Below are positions 2,537 through 59,057 of a stretch of DNA of 64,000 nucleotides, one piece after another. Location of the stretch: the sequence record OQ599310, one strand, 5' to 3'. The DNA is from Escherichia phage 55. Position 1 is the first letter of the stretch; each line of letters opens with the position of its first letter. Under the pieces are notes generated by a model. The model searched no databases. It had not been told where the DNA came from and saw only the letters and a program-made list of their open reading frames with translations. The position numbers were made by a program, and so were the translations under genes.

Positions 2537-3645
2537 TAGAAAGTCCCCGCATAAAGTGAAGAACGGTTTAATGTAATAATTTCTCGCATTGTTATCTCTA
2601 ACGTAAATGTTGACGGTAAGTTAGGAGCAACAGCAAGACCATTAAATTGTCCATTTGGAGTTTTATCAAAACGTACGCTTTGAATTTGACATGGGCCAAA
2701 TACATCAGTTAACCCGTCAAATTTAGATGTATAACCAAAGTTTTTAACCATCCAAATTGTAGGGTTACTTACAACTAATACATTTGTTAATGACGCAGTA
2801 ATCTTTTCAAACAATGTCTTATTTTTTACTGCATCGTCTGGCGTCATAGGCTCAATAAACGTTGAACGGTACCATTCGTCTAAATAACTTTTAATCTCTT
2901 GGGCGTACTGTGATTTACCGGTCTCACCATATGAGAAATAGTTAAAATACTGGTAAATGTTTATAATAGCCATAAGGTCTTCAGTTGAACGCGGAGTTAA
3001 ATCCCATGTAAAGACTTTAGTACGGTTCTCGGCACCACCATACATACTACGAGAAGTCGTATAAATCTGCTCGTTATTATCAGCCATAAGCCCTTGAGTA
3101 ATAGAATCTAATGCACCAAAAACTGCAGTAGAAGCAATGTTACTTAAAACACCTGTAGCAGTACCTCCACCTTTAGTAATAAGGCTATCACCGATATCAT
3201 TAAAACGATGTGAAGTTGTATCAACGTCAGATTTGGAACGTGGCAAAAGTATATTAGCAACAGGAGTTTTATTTATAGTAGATTTATTAGCTCCGGCAGG
3301 AAGCAACCCATTAGAGAATTTAGTCACTGCATCTTTCACGTTATCAGTTAAATCTGATATGATACCATTAGATGAAGTTCCGGCGTATGCCGGACGTAAA
3401 TTCCTGAGGGATCCTGAATCGCGTGCAGACATATTGTACGCGGTAAATAATAATCCATTCTTATAAAGGTCTGTTACCTGGAAGTCTCCTGTGGAGTCAT
3501 TTCCGGCTGCTCTTCCTGTAGGAAATTGAGCAACATAAGTTTTAGTAGTTGTTTCGGTTTTAGTGCTTTGCCCAGCACTTTCTGAGACTGGGATTGCTTT
3601 ATTTAAATCCTTTGCATCTACTACTATTTCTTTTACACTAATCAT
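2536..3645 (-). CDS. 48: baseplate tail tube cap gp48
   Basis: 369 aa; synteny between 54 and 29; stop overlaps gene 54 start. Confidence 0.8.
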   Translation of the reverse strand: MISVKEIVVDAKDLNKAIPVSESAGQSTKTETTTKTYVAQFPTGRAAGNDSTGDFQVTDLYKNGLLFTAYNMSARDSGSLRNLRPAYAGTSSNGIISDLTDNVKDAVTKFSNGLLPAGANKSTINKTPVANILLPRSKSDVDTTSHRFNDIGDSLITKGGGTATGVLSNIASTAVFGALDSITQGLMADNNEQIYTTSRSMYGGAENRTKVFTWDLTPRSTEDLMAIINIYQYFNYFSYGETGKSQYAQEIKSYLDEWYRSTFIEPMTPDDAVKNKTLFEKITASLTNVLVVSNPTIWMVKNFGYTSKFDGLTDVFGPCQIQSVRFDKTPNGQFNGLAVAPNLPSTFTLEITMREIITLNRSSLYAGTF

Positions 3646-3653
3646 AATAATCC

Positions 3654-5426
3654 TTAATTAACACCGGTGGCATGGAAAATTCCAGGAGCCGTTGTACTTG
3701 TTACAGGGGTCATATTCTGGACTACGGTATTCTTTTTGACGACGTTATTTGTGTTACTAATCGCCGCTACCGGTTGCTGTTGTTTAGATTCAGAAGCACG
3801 TCCTTTCTCTATTGACTGAACTTGTTTTGCTTCCGGAGATTTAGTCGAAGATTCAGGCTTAACTGTTGTCTGAGCCTTTTTGGCTTCAGCCATTTTATTA
3901 TTTAGCTTTTCAAATCTAGCGTCTATTTCCTTTTTAACAACAGGAGTTTTATTAAGTTCAGGGTCTTTAATAAGTTTACTTAAATCAGCATAAGACTTCT
4001 CGACGTTTTTAGCATTTTCCGGATTAGTCATATCGATTTTATCGATATAATCCTCAAATCTAACCAGTGCCGCACGAGTTTCATTAGCTTTTATATACGC
4101 CTCTTTACGCTCCTCTTCAGGTAACTCTTTTAATTTTGCTGATTCCGCAGCACGCTCATCGCTTGTACTAAACTCTTCTTTATTGTCATTACCACGAACC
4201 CAGTTAGTAACGAATGTTTTGCCGCGTTGTAACATATCAAGACCTTTAGAAACGGTTCCTAATTCCCCATCGTCACGCTTCATTTGATATTTAGCGACTT
4301 TCTCTTGGTCTTCTTTCTTTAATTTGTTCCCAGTAGTTTCTTGGAATCCTTCCAAAGCACGTCCTTCTATTTCGTCCGCGGTATCACCAAAACCTATAGC
4401 ACGCAATATAGATGCGGAGAGTTTAGCCATTCCTAATTGAATTAGTTCACCTAAGTTCATTAATGCTGTTCCTACACCTTTGACAATAGCAACGGTTAAA
4501 CCACCCCAGTCTCCAGCTTCCCACAATTGTTTTATCGAGTCAATAGAAGTGAATATATCACTTAAGAATTTACCCCACTCTTGAGCTTCATCGGAGAATT
4601 TAGTAAAGTTTTCATCAAATAAATCCCAGGCAGAAGTGAATTTGTCTGTCCAATATTTGAAATGGACTATCAATAAATCAATACCGATAACAATACCAAG
4701 AATAAGCGCGGCCATTTTTGCTGCTTCAATAGCGGCCGTTATAGTGTATTTGAAAAGCATTCCAGCAATTCTGTCTGAAATTGATATTGATTTATTAAAC
4801 CCGGTTTGAACTGTTTTGGTGAGCATTGCGATTTTATCGCTCAATTTAAAGCTAATTCCGCCTTTAGAATCGGAAGTAGAATTAGCACTTTCTTGAACCG
4901 GGGCTGGGAAGAAATCTTCGTCTGGCTTATTATCAATCTTTTCAGGTGTAGGTAATGCTTTAAACAACTCATCAGAAGTTTCATTCTCAACCACTTTAAC
5001 AGGTATTGCGTTCTCAATTACTTCAAGAGAGGTGCCTCCTGTATTTTGAATAGCGGTAGATGTTTGTAATTTTTGCTCTAACAATGTAGCTAATCGGTCT
5101 AACTTAGAGCTTATTGCACTAGAAACTTCGTTTATACTTTTAGTGACTTCAGTTTGTTTTTCAATAACTTCTGCGATAAGCTCTGTGCCTTCAGCAGTAT
5201 TATCTGTCGAATTCTTTAAGTCTCCAATTGATTCAATAATTCCATTGCCTTTATCTTCTACACTTTGCGATGTGAGTTCAGACGCGGCTTGGACATCGTC
5301 TAGTTTTGATGAAATATCATTCAATGCTTCTAATGAATCGGTAGCTGCTGTTGCAGCTACTTTTTGTGGTTTATTATCGGCAATGACCTTATTTCTACGC
5401 ATGGATTTCATTTCTTCAGGTTTCAT
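3654..5426 (-). CDS. 29: tail length tape measure / baseplate hub gp29
   Basis: 590 aa, same as T4 gp29; synteny. Confidence 0.85.
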   Translation of the reverse strand: MKPEEMKSMRRNKVIADNKPQKVAATAATDSLEALNDISSKLDDVQAASELTSQSVEDKGNGIIESIGDLKNSTDNTAEGTELIAEVIEKQTEVTKSINEVSSAISSKLDRLATLLEQKLQTSTAIQNTGGTSLEVIENAIPVKVVENETSDELFKALPTPEKIDNKPDEDFFPAPVQESANSTSDSKGGISFKLSDKIAMLTKTVQTGFNKSISISDRIAGMLFKYTITAAIEAAKMAALILGIVIGIDLLIVHFKYWTDKFTSAWDLFDENFTKFSDEAQEWGKFLSDIFTSIDSIKQLWEAGDWGGLTVAIVKGVGTALMNLGELIQLGMAKLSASILRAIGFGDTADEIEGRALEGFQETTGNKLKKEDQEKVAKYQMKRDDGELGTVSKGLDMLQRGKTFVTNWVRGNDNKEEFSTSDERAAESAKLKELPEEERKEAYIKANETRAALVRFEDYIDKIDMTNPENAKNVEKSYADLSKLIKDPELNKTPVVKKEIDARFEKLNNKMAEAKKAQTTVKPESSTKSPEAKQVQSIEKGRASESKQQQPVAAISNTNNVVKKNTVVQNMTPVTSTTAPGIFHATGVN

Positions 5427-51185: not shown

Positions 51186-51259
51186 GGCCCTGTAGCTCAA
51201 CGGTTAGCAGCAGTCCCCTCATAAGGGAAAGGTTACCAGTTCGAATCTGGTCTGGGTCA
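51186..51259 (+). tRNA. tRNA with CAU anticodon (Met or lysidine-Ile type), imperfect stems
   Basis: Hand-folded cloverleaf: T-arm ACCAG/TTCGAAT/CTGGT, loop CTCATAA; one acceptor mismatch, 3-bp D stem, one G-A in anticodon stem. Confidence 0.55.
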
Positions 51260-51265
51260 TATATT

Positions 51266-51342
<77 letters not shown>

Positions 51343-51360
51343 ACTTTAAGTGAGGAAAAT

Positions 51361-51705
51361 ATGAAAGGCAATGTTTATCTGGTAGTTCATGATTTAACGT
51401 TTTATTTTAACGAATATGATACAGTTATTTCTCATCGATTGATTAATTCGCTGTATCAGCATGCCGATTACATCTATGTTCAAAATGAATTTGGTCATTG
51501 GAAGTTCATTAAAAACCGTTCCGGGTTAACTAGTTTTGAATACTTTGACCGTAAAGACCTTTTAAACGAAATCCCATTGCAACATCGGTTTCAGAAACGC
51601 GAATCATTATATTATTGCCGTCATATACCAAACGCCGAATGTGTTGATGAAGCAATTAATCTATGGCGTAGACGTAGAGAACAAATTGATGATATGCCAA
51701 AATAA
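51361..51705 (+). CDS. hypothetical protein
   Basis: ATG 51361 after GAGGAAAA RBS; ORF-track start 51313 lies inside tRNA-Arg. Confidence 0.6.
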   Translation: MKGNVYLVVHDLTFYFNEYDTVISHRLINSLYQHADYIYVQNEFGHWKFIKNRSGLTSFEYFDRKDLLNEIPLQHRFQKRESLYYCRHIPNAECVDEAINLWRRRREQIDDMPK

Positions 51706-51719
51706 GAAGCCGGGTCGCT

Positions 51720-52006
51720 ACCGGCAAGACGTCGGACTGATGTTCCCTGAGTAAGGACTGGTCTTAATAAATCTTTATGATTCGTTAATATCCCCTTACA
51801 TCACAGCAGAAACGGCGCACAGAATTATCGATTCGAGGAAATATCTTTGCCGTAAGCCGAGTAGCGTTTTTGACGGAACGTTCGGATATGGTCGAGATAT
51901 GGCCTTTTAAAATATTGAGTAGCGTCAACTACTTAATAACCGGGTTCAAATCCCGGCGTTTCGTACAAACACTTACCTAGTAGGTGGAAACCCCGACAAG
52001 GTATAT
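51720..52006 (+). ncRNA. candidate small stable RNA region (T4 rnaC/rnaD-like?) with tRNA-like T-arm
   Basis: ~290 nt without ORF in the tRNA neighbourhood; hairpin GCCGG..CCGGC at 51710-51725; T-arm CCGGG/TTCAAAT/CCCGG at 51940-51956; no canonical cloverleaf. Confidence 0.3.
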
Positions 52007-54345: not shown

Positions 54346-54948
54346 ATGCGAAACCAAAATAATGATATTGACTCAATGTTCGAAGAGTTCCGAGATAAGG
54401 TAAATCCACCTACGTCCTTAGTTGATTCATTACGATATGTTGCAACCGGACGTAAATGGTACTGGTCGTCTTCTTATGAGACCACCGAGAAAACGGCTAG
54501 CCATAGCAGAAAATCTTTATTAGCCCCAGGTATTATGATTCATGATATCGGAGCTATTGCTAAACTAGTTGCAGACCATGATATTAGATTCACTGATTTC
54601 GTTGCTCCTACGTGGTCTGTTTGTTGTTTAAACACTGAATGGGAATATATCAGCGAACGCTCTGAAGATTATTATGGTTTTAGAGATAAGCTTCTGAGGT
54701 CTAATATGTTTTATATCGATACAGAAGTTCTAGTCGATAATAAAAAATATTACTTTACGTTAATCATCGATTCTGAAACTATGTATGAAGGCAAGCCTTT
54801 GCTTAAAAGAGTTGATGCTTTAAGTGCTATTGATGCGCTTTATGAAACTATGGTTGTTAGTCCTAATTTCACTAACAATTTAATCCTTGAGCAATTTATT
54901 ATGGAATGTAGAGAATATGTCAAAGCCAACCCTATACATGCCAAGTAA
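54346..54948 (+). CDS. hypothetical protein
   Basis: 200 aa; RBS AAGGAG. Confidence 0.6.
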   Translation: MRNQNNDIDSMFEEFRDKVNPPTSLVDSLRYVATGRKWYWSSSYETTEKTASHSRKSLLAPGIMIHDIGAIAKLVADHDIRFTDFVAPTWSVCCLNTEWEYISERSEDYYGFRDKLLRSNMFYIDTEVLVDNKKYYFTLIIDSETMYEGKPLLKRVDALSAIDALYETMVVSPNFTNNLILEQFIMECREYVKANPIHAK

Positions 54949-55312
54949 GCCCTGGGCGTATGAATACAAGCGTAAATTAATCCCAAATGAAGTACTATTT
55001 GGCCCTATTTTAGCTTTAGCATTTTTAATCTTTATGATTATAGGAGCTGTTTTAGATTCTAGTGAAGTTATATCGTCTGATGCAGCATTTTCATTAATGT
55101 TCGTCGCACCACTTATTGTACCGTTTTTATTAATGCCTATTAATTGGGCAGGATATTGGCACCAAGGCCGTCATCACAGAGCCCGATTAAGAGAATGGAA
55201 AGTTCAGTGCGCAAAAGCCCAAGCTCAGTATGATGAAGCTGTTAAAAAGTATGAATATGAAGAAGCTATGGAATTCGTTAAGGAAATAAGATGCAAAAGC
55301 CTCAACTCTTAA
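54917..55312 (+). CDS. membrane protein, C-terminal FVKEIRCK motif (start uncertain: 54917 or 54938)
   Basis: Two hydrophobic helices; overlaps upstream gene end. Confidence 0.5.
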   Translation: MSKPTLYMPSKPWAYEYKRKLIPNEVLFGPILALAFLIFMIIGAVLDSSEVISSDAAFSLMFVAPLIVPFLLMPINWAGYWHQGRHHRARLREWKVQCAKAQAQYDEAVKKYEYEEAMEFVKEIRCKSLNS

Positions 55313-55650
55313 CCGTATGGCCTTCTCTTGGTGAGAACATTCTAATTTTTATTATGAGTATTGGCATGGGATTTGCCTTTGGATTAGTTGGATTTCTTAT
55401 TGACGGAGTTGTGTTAGGATTTATAGGGAACACCGGTGGATTCACAGACCAATGGCAGGACTTACGATATACTCAAGCCTTTGCATCCATCGCATCATTT
55501 TGTACTGTAGTCTATTTTTACTACGATTTTATAAACCACAACAAGAAAAATAAAAAGGTTTACGCTTCTCAAATGATTAGTTATAATGAACTCCTAGCTA
55601 GACGTGAAAATGAAACAATCGAAAACTTTATTAAGGAATGTAGAAAATGA
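55291..55650 (+). CDS. membrane protein ending ENFIKECRK
   Basis: 119 aa, hydrophobic core; overlaps upstream ORF by 22 nt. Confidence 0.6.
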   Translation: MQKPQLLTVWPSLGENILIFIMSIGMGFAFGLVGFLIDGVVLGFIGNTGGFTDQWQDLRYTQAFASIASFCTVVYFYYDFINHNKKNKKVYASQMISYNELLARRENETIENFIKECRK

Positions 55651-55952
55651 GTAAGATTATTGAAATTAAAGTACCAGAGTTTAATGATGCCAAATCCGCT
55701 TCAGATGCAATTTATAAACTTCTGAATCAAGCTGAACGTATCGAAGAAGAAGCAACAAAGATCGCAGACCAATATGCTGTATCATTTTCTGTAGGTGATT
55801 ATGGTAGCGGTCGTACTTATTATCCTAAGGGTGAAATCGTATCCCAGTGGATGAAAGATGAAATTGAAAATAATGGCGGCGATGTTAAGCGTGAAGGTAA
55901 TGGATACGTTATTACTGAAGGTGCTTGGGTTTCGTCTTCTGCGTTGTGCTAA
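55647..55952 (+). CDS. small protein paralog A (C-terminal GAWVSSSALC)
   Basis: 101 aa; first of three tandem paralogs. Confidence 0.65.
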   Translation: MSKIIEIKVPEFNDAKSASDAIYKLLNQAERIEEEATKIADQYAVSFSVGDYGSGRTYYPKGEIVSQWMKDEIENNGGDVKREGNGYVITEGAWVSSSALC

Positions 55953-55961
55953 GGAATCATT

Positions 55962-56234
55962 ATGTCTAAAGAACAAACCGAACTGGCTGAAGCTGTAGCA
56001 AAAATCTATGCAGCTATTGAGGCTGCCAAAGAAATTGCTGATAAACAAAACACAACATTCGACTTGTATCCAGCTTATGGTATGGGTGGAACCTATCATT
56101 CACCCGGACATCTTAAAGCCGATCTTGAACGTTGTACAAAAAACGGCCAGGCTGAATGGGCTGACGTTTACCAATACGACTACAACCTGAGCCTTGAAGA
56201 TGGCGGTTGGGTTGCATCTTCTCACACTTGCTAA
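55962..56234 (+). CDS. small protein paralog B (C-terminal GGWVASSHTC)
   Basis: 90 aa; shares KIY..IE.A.EIAD and GxGGTY motifs with paralog A. Confidence 0.65.
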   Translation: MSKEQTELAEAVAKIYAAIEAAKEIADKQNTTFDLYPAYGMGGTYHSPGHLKADLERCTKNGQAEWADVYQYDYNLSLEDGGWVASSHTC

Positions 56235-56243
56235 GGAAATCAT

Positions 56244-56441
56244 ATGTCTCGTGAATTAGATTGTGCTGTACGTACCGCAGTAGCTGCTCTAGAAAACCTG
56301 TTCCAGATTGCAACCGAAGAGCGTGAAGAAGTTACATTGTGGATTGAAGATAACGCAGGTCTGAATCTCCAGGACGCGATCTCATTATCCCACAATAGTA
56401 TCACTGTTCAAGGCTGGGTATCGTCTAGTTATTCTTGCTAA
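56244..56441 (+). CDS. small protein paralog C (C-terminal QGWVSSSYSC)
   Basis: 65 aa; same C-terminal motif and same TAAGGAA-ATG junction. Confidence 0.6.
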   Translation: MSRELDCAVRTAVAALENLFQIATEEREEVTLWIEDNAGLNLQDAISLSHNSITVQGWVSSSYSC

Positions 56442-56446
56442 AACAG

Positions 56447-56475
56447 TTTACAACAAGATAGGGCTATGTTATAGT
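56447..56475 (+). promoter_or_regulatory. early promoter with stem-loop
   Basis: TTTACA / TATAGT; palindrome GATAGGGCTA..TAGCCCTATC. Confidence 0.65.
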
Positions 56476-56503
56476 AGCCCTATCAAATTAAATGGAGTTC
56501 ACA

Positions 56504-56743
56504 ATGATTTATTACGAAAGTATCGGAACCAAAGTGGTTGGTAAAACCATTACTCGTGAAAAGTTTGCAAAGATATTCGATATGCGTTATAAAAAATCTG
56601 AACACAAAGGCATCCGATTCGAAGATGCGCACTGTACAATTTGCCCTTATAATGAAGACATAAACGGTACAATCGTTCCATTGGTAGAGGCTTCACATGA
56701 TGACCTCTGGGATGAATATAATATCGCATGTCGTGAAATTTAA
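56504..56743 (+). CDS. hypothetical protein
   Basis: 79 aa; RBS GGAG; early promoter 56447-56475. Confidence 0.6.
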   Translation: MIYYESIGTKVVGKTITREKFAKIFDMRYKKSEHKGIRFEDAHCTICPYNEDINGTIVPLVEASHDDLWDEYNIACREI

Positions 56744-56767: not shown

Positions 56768-57724
56768 ATGATGTTAGTTATTGGTTCTCGTGCACTTCAC
56801 TATCATGGTCTTATTGATTCTAGCGCTATCAAAAATAGCGATTGGGACTTTATTGCGGACCAAGGTTCTTGGAATGCATTCAAAAATCAAATGATGGGTG
56901 TATATGTCCACCAAGATAACCCTGATGTCCAAGTTTTCAAATGCTTCCATAATGGACGCGAAACTCATTTTGAAGCATACATCGTTCCGGCTATCACTAA
57001 CGTTCGCGAACTAGTCGGTGAACTCACTCCTGAAGATTTCACGTCTTCTTATGACCTTTTAAAATACGCCAAGAAAAATTTGACTAAAGACCGTTTGAAC
57101 GGGTTTTACTGGGCAACTCCTGAGATATGTCTTGCAATTAAGATGTCTCATCGTTTCAAGAAAAATAATCCATTCTTTTTAAAGACTATGAACCATATTC
57201 AGTATCTTCGTGGTAAAGGTGTTACACTGAACGATGAACTTACTGAAATTATGCTGAAACGCCAGAAAGAAACCTTGAACTATGCTCACCCAGTTCTTGA
57301 CACTTCTAAAAGTGCGTTCTTTAAAGATGACATCTATACATATGACCATGATACTATTCATGAAGCCATTGCACTAACAGACCGTCCAGCGTATACATTT
57401 TATATGAAAGATGGTTCTGAAGTCATGACCTCACGCGAGAAGTTCGAATCATTACCAGAAATGGTCAAATTGGCCGGCGTATACGAAGAATCATGTGTAC
57501 TAGCGTTAGAACGTTCTCAGATTCCTAATAACTTTGAAATCCATCCACGTGATAGTTTTATGATGGCCCTTGAAAAGGTCTGTACATCAATCACATCAGG
57601 ATGGTTCCGTGAGTTCGCTTGGGAAAATTATAGCAAAGTAGTAAGTATGTACCAAAGCTTAGGACACGACGATTACGTCAAGCGTTTCAAACAAAACTTT
57701 CATATGGTAAAACCTTTCAAATAA
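56768..57724 (+). CDS. hypothetical 318-aa protein, possible nucleotidyltransferase-like N-terminus
   Basis: Largest ORF of the accessory region; N-terminal IGSRAL...SDWDFIAD pattern. Confidence 0.65.
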   Translation: MMLVIGSRALHYHGLIDSSAIKNSDWDFIADQGSWNAFKNQMMGVYVHQDNPDVQVFKCFHNGRETHFEAYIVPAITNVRELVGELTPEDFTSSYDLLKYAKKNLTKDRLNGFYWATPEICLAIKMSHRFKKNNPFFLKTMNHIQYLRGKGVTLNDELTEIMLKRQKETLNYAHPVLDTSKSAFFKDDIYTYDHDTIHEAIALTDRPAYTFYMKDGSEVMTSREKFESLPEMVKLAGVYEESCVLALERSQIPNNFEIHPRDSFMMALEKVCTSITSGWFREFAWENYSKVVSMYQSLGHDDYVKRFKQNFHMVKPFK

Positions 57725-58370: not shown

Positions 58371-59057
58371 ATGAATAGTTCTAAAGTGTTTAATAGTCAA
58401 GCTCGTGCAGTAGGTGGTTTTGCCGGCGGTATTTCTAATGATAAAATCAAGAACGAGCCTATGTTCTTCAACTGTAGTTTAGAATTTGCTTATAATAACG
58501 GCGGTCCTATTACTCGCAGCTTCATCATGAACTTGCCGGATGATTGGAACACCGACCAGGTTGTATTTGATTCACGAGTCCATATGCTGATGCCTGGTTG
58601 GTATCCTGCTATTCCTGGTTATCACCATGATGACGTACCACGCCCGGATATTCCGGTTGGTCAACATTTTATTACTGCAGGACAACCTGACTATGACAAT
58701 CCTCGCTATTTGTCTGAACATATTCTTGGTCTTGTTAACGCTGATGTGTGTCCTACTCATTTTGCAACAGGAACTGCAGAGTTCAGTCAGATTCCTGATG
58801 GCGAACTTATCTATCGCCAGTGGCACAAAGAAGTCCTCGAAAAAATTGAAAAAGGTGAACTAGAGAAATGGGAAGCTCCGGACCGTACTCTTCTTCAGTT
58901 TGATTGGCAAACATGGCACACTGGTTCTCGTGCAATTAGTAATGGATGGCGTTGGTTCGGACGTGTATCTCGTAATACAGACCGAGTTAAAAAGATTACC
59001 AATGAAATTCGTGTCAACGCTCAAGTTTATCTAGAATTCCCTATGGAAGGCTGGTAA
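58371..59057 (+). CDS. hypothetical 228-aa protein
   Basis: His/Trp-rich (GYHHDD, TWHTG); no confident family assignment. Confidence 0.6.
   Translation: MNSSKVFNSQARAVGGFAGGISNDKIKNEPMFFNCSLEFAYNNGGPITRSFIMNLPDDWNTDQVVFDSRVHMLMPGWYPAIPGYHHDDVPRPDIPVGQHFITAGQPDYDNPRYLSEHILGLVNADVCPTHFATGTAEFSQIPDGELIYRQWHKEVLEKIEKGELEKWEAPDRTLLQFDWQTWHTGSRAISNGWRWFGRVSRNTDRVKKITNEIRVNAQVYLEFPMEGW

Follow-up and report, generated by a model that had tools for sequence, protein, structure and literature searches.

A C-terminal tail shared by small phage proteins and its linkage to a predicted nucleotidyltransferase gene in Escherichia phage 55 and other virulent phages

Three small tailed genes in the early region

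Escherichia phage 55 (sequence record OQ599310; the window is the whole stretch of 64,000 nucleotides analyzed here, read as one strand) carries three consecutive small open reading frames (ORFs), ORF1, ORF2, and ORF3, whose products all end in the same short tail, W-x-[SAP]-S-S-x-x-C, with the stop codon following directly. These tailed genes form a conserved module together with a downstream gene whose product has a predicted nucleotidyltransferase fold (56768-57724), and this linkage, which is the main point and was missed in the original prediction made from the sequence, points to an undescribed enzyme-partner system. The genes and tails are as follows.

ORF1: 55647..55952, plus strand, 101 amino acids (aa), equivalent to RB69ORF139c; tailed small protein of the GDYGSGRTYYP type; matches phrog_899 at 1e-22
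ORF1 tail, WVSSSALC: 55926..55949, plus strand, stop codon directly after
ORF2: 55962..56234, plus strand, 90 aa, equivalent to RB69ORF137c; tailed small protein of the typical YGMGGTY type; matches phrog_899 at 4e-19
ORF2 tail, WVASSHTC: 56208..56231, plus strand, stop codon directly after
ORF3: 56244..56441, plus strand, 65 aa, equivalent to RB69ORF136c; tailed small protein with a different body and without the YGxGG loop; matches phrog_4882 at 8e-37
ORF3 tail, WVSSSYSC: 56415..56438, plus strand, stop codon directly after
DUF7277 + DUF7275 protein gene: 56768..57724, plus strand, 318 aa, equivalent to RB69ORF134c; predicted Pol-beta-fold nucleotidyltransferase; matches phrog_2141 and both DUFs with high significance

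The three reading frames and their ends (GAWVSSSALC, GGWVASSHTC, and QGWVSSSYSC) are as originally described, and the two junctions of stop codon, ribosome-binding site, and start codon (TGCTAAGGAATCATTATG and TGCTAAGGAAATCATATG) are identical to the earlier reading. Of the 504 ORFs in the window that reach 30 aa or more, only ORF1 to ORF3 have the tail. These are real genes under purifying selection: the ratio of nonsynonymous to synonymous substitution rates (dN/dS) is 0.14 to 0.46 against orthologues in JS98 and a Klebsiella phage, an AAGGAA Shine-Dalgarno sequence precedes each of the three, the serine codons of the three tails differ (TCG/TCT/AGT), and an AlphaFold (AF2) model of ORF2 reaches a predicted local distance difference test (pLDDT) score of 94. 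The differing serine codons further argue that the tail peptide is what is conserved and, together with dN/dS values below 0.5, that selection acts on it. The ORF2 model has a helix at residues 3-29, a hairpin at 32-46, a second helix at 48-60, a strand at 81-85, and a terminal turn at 86-89; the N-terminal helix is long and amphipathic, and the alanine of its IAD motif is nearly invariant. The products are small alpha/beta proteins, and their genes are early/middle phage genes.

ORF1 and ORF2 are paralogues and ORF3 shares the tail

Pairwise similarity among the three proteins, on which the proposed kinship depended, is marginal and mostly C-terminal in BLASTP, weak but positive for every pair (ORF1-ORF2, E=7e-5; ORF2-ORF3, 9e-4; ORF1-ORF3, 1e-3). 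The internal motifs said to be common to ORF1 and ORF2 are real, consisting of the IAD helix and a glycine-rich loop that reads YGSGRTYYPKG in the one and YGMGGTYHSPG in the other. With the last nine residues removed, both proteins still match a family hidden Markov model (HMM) that was built without either of them (1e-17 for ORF1 and 8e-20 for ORF2); both have a body-level profile match to the phrog_899-type family, and by these profile comparisons they are true paralogues even without the tail. ORF3, which falls in phrog_4882, has no such body-level match: its hhalign probability against the family is 90.5% with the tail and 1.1% without it, the alignment covers only the last 14 residues, and its kinship to ORF1 and ORF2 is demonstrable at the sequence level through the shared tail only.

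The tandem triplication proposed earlier thus stands in part. ORF1 and ORF2 are homologous and a C-terminal element is common to all three proteins, but ORF3, in another PHROG, is joined to the others by its last ~14 residues only. Nor was the triplication a local event. The array is ancient, since Dhakavirus and the T4-like phages of Klebsiella (kv_tblp5 group) have a separate orthologue for each of ORF1, ORF2, and ORF3, in unchanged order; only some of these orthologues are present in the Karamvirus loci seen, JS98 has a fourth tailed member ending in FWFSSSMSC, and other phages have up to six. Single paralogues are dispensable in laboratory or natural phages, because the RB69 orthologue of ORF1 (P0002, RB69ORF139c) is cut to 71 aa and has lost its tail, and the ORF2 orthologue of phage vB_Eco_mar005P1 (P0147) is frameshifted and truncated.

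Conservation lies in the tail and not in the body

Among 1.84 billion cluster representatives searched exhaustively with an HMM, 901 proteins match the family at E ≤ 1e-3 and 241 at E ≤ 1e-10. The members inspected are 58 to 175 aa long, and the matches nearly all reach the last residue. A search for the C-terminal motif in other phages, as the original prediction had proposed, shows it to be widespread, with the exact ending W-x-[SAP]-S-S-x-x-C in 162 of the 173 sequences inspected. Among these 162, the tryptophan, the cysteine, and the serine at -4 are invariant, the serine at -3 is a threonine in two, and a glycine is favored before the tryptophan; over 29 divergent members the only invariant residues are W, S, S, and C. 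A few of the 173 have one residue beyond the terminal cysteine, and short variants of the tail occur (W-x-x-S-S-C and W-x-S-S-x-C). The terminal cysteine is the sole cysteine in 95 of the 173 members.

When the tails are removed from 184 distinct tail-bearing proteins, BLAST clustering leaves about 20 clusters that cannot be connected to one another; ORF1 and ORF2 belong to one of 142, and ORF3 to another of 14 sequences (25 loci). Judged by these comparisons, the conserved unit is the tail and not the body, and the invariant tail is a simple sequence handle with which all members can be retrieved. About 3% of the tailed proteins have a second, internal copy of the motif with an acidic stretch after it (e.g., WNSSSCYGEDE... 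and HWSDSSCYGGDYADDWDSSSANC; L026, L073, L061, L025/L028, P0150, and P0162), and either the motif works internally or these proteins are processed after the internal cysteine.

The family was not recognized originally, and Pfam, NCBIfam, PADLOC, PDB, and the literature indeed give nothing for it, the PHROGs label being function unknown. Phrog_899, phrog_4882, and DUF7277/DUF7275 (phrog_2141) are bioinformatic bins to which no function is attached, and none of them notes the tail or the linkage. Our literature search found nothing relevant on either gene family, the RB69 ORF names, phage-encoded DUF1814-like enzymes, or small proteins with a C-terminal cysteine. Weak Pfam matches of ORF1 (Peptidase_S78_2 and E217_Gp32) and ORF3 (MS_channel_3rd) lie under the curated cutoffs and were disregarded. 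We note that some ORF2 homologues (H86, H87, and H93) are named "tail completion protein" in GenBank, a name for which we found no support.

The tailed genes are linked to a DUF7277-DUF7275 gene

In the window, ORF3 ends at 56441 and the gene for the 318-aa protein starts at 56768 on the same strand. The same arrangement, with a homologue of the 318-aa protein coded downstream of the tailed genes and on the same strand, was present in all eight of the loci fetched first, and in Stephanstirmvirinae loci it persists with a homologue only 37 to 46% identical and with otherwise unrelated neighboring genes. Starting from the enzyme, 50 of 65 loci on viral contigs have at least one ORF with the strict motif and nine more have short tail variants. 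Strict-motif ORFs number 106 among the 8,236 ORFs of these 65 loci, and 105 of the 106 are on the same strand as the enzyme gene, most within ~2.5 kb upstream. This positional restriction, and the presence of the tail in so few ORFs of the window, argue that the tail is not a chance occurrence. Starting from the small proteins (a search run with a nine-sequence sub-alignment of the family), the enzyme gene is downstream in 33 of 35 loci, and the two exceptions are contig ends.

Where tailed genes are present, they number one to six per enzyme gene. The pairing reaches across Straboviridae (T4-like phages), Stephanstirmvirinae (Phapecocta-/Justusliebig-type phages), Acinetobacter Lazarusvirus, Acinetobacter phage Apostate, viral contigs of 355 to 371 kb, and five of the six cellular-genome matches, all of which are contigs of metagenome-assembled genomes (MAGs). 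The module is essentially phage-restricted, since the enzyme family is found in 734 phage records and in only six MAG contigs among 185,579 prokaryotic species. Early genes of unknown function run to hundreds in T4-like and other large virulent phages, and some of these genes resolve here into a two-component module, with one nucleotidyltransferase-fold enzyme and one to six small proteins that share an eight-residue tail. The tailed proteins are, in our view, very probably partners of the 318-aa enzyme in some form.

An alternative to any partnership is that the small proteins act independently of the enzyme, for example by binding a metal, a nucleotide, or a host protein through the W/SS/C and YGxGG elements or oligomerizing through the cysteine, the enzyme gene being simply a syntenic neighbor in a variable early-gene region. 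The tail and the glycine-rich hairpin lie in a compact predicted fold and could form a ligand site, the frequent occurrence of the terminal cysteine as the sole cysteine fits intermolecular chemistry, and paralogues have been lost singly with the enzyme kept, as in RB69 and mar005P1. We nonetheless hold this to be improbable, because the linkage is two-way and persists over phage families whose neighboring genes are otherwise unrelated, which makes hitchhiking unlikely.

Three features stand between ORF3 and the enzyme gene in the window.

Promoter-like site: 56447-56475, sigma-70-like, TTTACA-17-TATAGT with TG; overlaps the hairpin
Hairpin: 56457..56484, unstranded, 10-bp stem (GATAGGGCTA...TAGCCCTATC), directly 3' of ORF3; annotated as a terminator in SA79RD
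83-aa ORF: 56492..56743, plus strand, phrog_3723, unknown function; interposed

The hairpin lies between the small genes on one side and the 83-aa ORF and enzyme gene on the other, and the predicted terminator/promoter junction at 56447-56484 may uncouple ORF1 to ORF3 from the enzyme gene. The 83-aa ORF is found only in Mosigvirus and JS98 among the eight loci fetched first, and it therefore lies outside the conserved module.

The Stenotrophomonas phage IME13 locus (L006) departs from the usual arrangement in two respects. Its enzyme homologue (2998-3893) is spread over three frames and annotated only as a 168-aa fragment, representing either a pseudogene or sequencing errors, and the upstream tailed gene is intact (YWLSSSDMC); the module adjoins nrdD/nrdC and not the e region. 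T4 nrdC.3 (308 aa) was considered as an enzyme homologue and rejected, as it has no match to the HMM, and the portion of T4 scanned, its first 50 kb, contains no tailed ORF.

The 318-aa protein is a predicted nucleotidyltransferase

Structural modeling places the 318-aa protein with confidence among the Pol-beta-fold nucleotidyltransferases, where its nearest neighbors in fold are the MenT/AbiEii toxins and the O-nucleotidyltransferases ANT(2'') and LnuA. It has both the hG[GS] and the [DE]x[DE] motifs, as I-G6-S7 and D25-W-D27, which are invariant in 40 homologues and kept in the most distant ones, and as far as conservation indicates, the catalytic motifs are intact. E69, a candidate third carboxylate, is invariant in the homologue alignment and is replaced or gapped in some distant homologues. 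The DUF7275-type helical domain carries a cluster of H128, H194-D195-H198, and E240-E241-E248. ANT(2'') and LnuA differ in acting on small-molecule substrates and in having neither a DUF7275-type helical domain nor partner proteins.

The closest characterized relatives are thus bacterial abortive-infection/toxin nucleotidyltransferases (AbiEii and MenT), and this kinship raises the prospect that a phage version with its own partners is a tool for host takeover, a counter-defense, or a new protein modification. The phage enzyme is nevertheless not a DUF1814/AbiEii member by sequence: Pfam returns only DUF7277 and DUF7275 even at E up to 10, PADLOC gives no relevant match for AbiE, and a PDB profile search does not retrieve the MenT proteins.

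The genes nearby hint weakly at an action of the enzyme family on RNA 3' ends. In the window, tRNA genes for Met(cat), Arg(tct), and Lys(ttt) lie at 51186-51966, ~4 kb upstream of the module, and three distant homologues without tailed neighbors are near RNA-related genes, that of Cucurbita (Gordonia) near a tRNA cluster, that of DSS3_VP1 near RNA ligase 2 and a phosphoesterase, and that of Bacillus G near a poly(A) polymerase. Some enzyme homologues (H159 and P0086) are labeled "prohead assembly scaffold protein," and we found no support for this label.

The tail as a putative acceptor

We favor a reading in which the products of ORF1 to ORF3, bearing G-W-x-[SAP]-S-S-x-x-C-COOH, would serve as dedicated partners of the DUF7277-DUF7275 enzyme, with the tail as acceptor. 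We infer that the two interact physically and that the enzyme would recognize the C-terminal tail, which in most members is accompanied by the YGxGG hairpin and may lie close to it in the fold. One or other of the two invariant tail serines would then receive a nucleotidyl (or phosphoryl) group from the enzyme, and a single enzyme could thus mark several different bodies. We put the probability that the tail is such an acceptor at roughly 0.4. One enzyme gene accompanied by one to six unlike bodies, all with the same short, invariant, hydroxyl-bearing motif, is the pattern expected of an enzyme with several substrates, and the structural neighbors ANT(2'') and LnuA support a substrate reading in being O-nucleotidyltransferases.

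Other Pol-beta-fold nucleotidyltransferases modify hydroxyls of small partner proteins, as in GlnD-PII, CitX-CitD, and MdcG-MdcC. A further precedent is the type VII HepT-MntA system, in which the Pol-beta-fold MntA is encoded beside the small protein HepT and polyadenylylates it, so that a side-chain hydroxyl of the partner is covalently modified (PMC7641770); by analogy, the invariant Ser-Ser of the phage tail would fit an acceptor site. The phage proteins have no homology to HepT, PII, or CitD, and they differ from all of these partners in that the putative acceptor serine is at the extreme C terminus beside an invariant cysteine and is carried on several unrelated bodies.

Several observations weigh against this acceptor role. 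In the ORF2 model, the tail tryptophan belongs to a beta-strand of the fold, so that the tail would not hang free as a flexible peptide, and structural constraints could explain part of its conservation. The spacing from SS to C ranges from 0 to 2 residues, and simple nucleotidylylation of a serine gives the invariant terminal cysteine no role. The enzyme can also exist without tailed genes, as none was found by motif or HMM within 6 kb of the enzyme gene in six of the 65 enzyme loci (L023, L032, L035, L036, L067, and L072) or near any of five distant homologues (Streptomyces, Gordonia, Bacillus G, DSS3_VP1, and Vibrio XZ1). The enzyme homologues at the six loci are close and apparently intact, and their partners may be elsewhere in the genome or lost. 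Finally, the closest structural relatives, MenT1, MenT3, and MenT4, act on tRNA and not on proteins, and the upstream partners of MenT are regulators and not substrates (PMC10435456, PMC11375011).

These MenT precedents lead to the main rival, in which a MenT/AbiEii-type tRNA nucleotidyltransferase shuts off or remodels translation and the small proteins are antitoxin-like regulators that bind it through the N-terminal helix and/or by insertion of the tail in the active site and so inhibit or time its activity, as for MenA1 on MenT1. The resemblances to MenAT/AbiE (MenA1-MenT1, MenA3-MenT3/TglT, and AbiEi-AbiEii; DUF1814) include the G[GS] and DxD motifs of the enzyme, and in MenAT a small cognate protein is likewise encoded upstream on the same strand (PMC10435456). 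MenA1, which regulates MenT1 (PMC10435456, PMC11375011), is a helical protein of 68 aa acting through its N-terminal helix, and ORF2 also has a long, amphipathic helix at its N terminus; the RNA-repair and tRNA genes that adjoin distant enzyme homologues fit this alternative too. The invariant element of the phage proteins is, however, the C-terminal W-x-x-S-S-x-x-C, whereas the C terminus of MenA1 is dispensable, and we found no similarity of ORF1 to ORF3 to MenA1 or COG5340 antitoxins in sequence or fold. Instead of one cognate antitoxin gene per toxin in an operon, the phage enzyme has one to six different small genes beside it, and in the window the hairpin, the promoter-like site, and the 83-aa ORF intervene. 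The existence of enzyme genes with no tailed neighbor, those of the six close loci among them, counts against a toxin-antitoxin arrangement as well, and the module is in virulent phages and virtually absent from cellular chromosomes. The system resembles known pairs of a nucleotidyltransferase and a small partner but has neither the sequence nor the architecture of MenAT/AbiE, and we regard antitoxin-like regulation as rather unlikely.

The variety of bodies bears also on whether the small proteins are targeting adaptors, with variable bodies that bind different host or phage targets and an invariant tail that docks the enzyme, so that one enzyme is brought to several targets. The same tail on about 20 unconnectable bodies, several of them beside one enzyme, and the essentially obligate linkage would suit such a role. 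Nine enzyme residues (R129, K131, K132, Y172, H174, Y190, D193, R281, and E282) are conserved in enzymes with tailed neighbors and in close homologues without them (L023, L032, L036, L067, and L076) and differ only in the five distant homologues without tailed genes, a difference that may reflect general divergence. A docking handle does not usually call for as much as two absolutely invariant serines and a terminal cysteine, the bodies are very small (52 to 100 aa), and no targets are known; we judge adaptors to be about as improbable as the enzyme-independent function discussed above.

The terminal cysteine, for which serine nucleotidylylation offers no role, invites one further comparison. 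The S-x-x-C spacing at the extreme C terminus is that of lanthionine and aminovinyl-cysteine (AviCys) rings, and the tailed proteins might be precursors or carriers of the kind that yield ribosomally synthesized and post-translationally modified peptides (RiPPs), with a tail serine activated by the enzyme, through nucleotidylylation or phosphorylation, and eliminated to dehydroalanine, the cysteine adding to it to form a lanthionine/AviCys-like ring, and a small product possibly released. Such a pathway alone would account for the invariant cysteine, and several tandem precursor-like genes per enzyme would be in keeping with it. We weighed this S-x-x-C reading and then down-weighted it to a very improbable one: a Pfam scan of nine neighboring proteins found no dedicated dehydratase, cyclase, or decarboxylase gene (no LanB/LanM/LanKC/LanD, YcaO, or radical-SAM gene), the serine-cysteine spacing is variable, and the conservation is reversed, as RiPPs typically have a conserved leader and a variable core and here the last eight residues are invariant. 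The tail, moreover, is predicted to be folded into a protein domain in the ORF2 model.

A version of the acceptor reading that combines these elements would have the MenT-like enzyme write a nucleotide, an oligonucleotide, or a phosphate on the invariant serine of a portable tail borne by several unrelated small effector proteins, perhaps followed by elimination or thioether formation between serine and cysteine, as a phage-specific modification. We consider this combined form unlikely. If it were true, virulent phages would have in this tail a new enzymatic address that directs post-translational modification, and the actual effectors would be the proteins so modified, acting for example in host takeover, in tRNA or translation control, or in counter-defense.

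Flanking genes and signals

Mosigvirus (RB69-like, T4-type) phages, among them JK45, APCEc01, and SA79RD, share 98% identity with the region, which lies in the early/middle gene block between frd and e, where ORF1 to ORF3 follow the membrane-protein gene e.3. The flanking features in the window are as follows.

e.4 homologue: 54887-55312, annotated "sulfurtransferase" in JK45, F27, JK36, and JK42; no Pfam match here
e.3 membrane-protein gene: 55291-55650, stop codon overlapping the ORF1 ATG (ATGA)
Promoter-like site: 55559..55587, plus strand, inside e.3 and 5' of ORF1 to ORF3; its position matches an annotated T4-type middle promoter in SA79RD
228-aa ORF: 58371-59057, phrog_1843, unknown function, no Pfam match; downstream of the enzyme gene

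The ATGA overlap of e.3 and ORF1 suggests translational coupling, and the annotations of JS98 and Klebsiella phage kv_tblp5 show the same 4-nucleotide overlap, there with a gene of ~120 aa upstream. An e.3-like gene is absent from the non-T4-like loci, and e.3 is thus probably not core to the module. The "sulfurtransferase" name of e.4 is without Pfam support and looks like a propagated annotation artifact. The 228-aa ORF is kept in close relatives and has a His/Asp-rich segment. We also note that Shigella phage JK45 (L001; MK962757 / NC_054940) is filed as a Tequatrovirus, and its region is 98% identical to Mosigvirus, with the RB69-type gene set.

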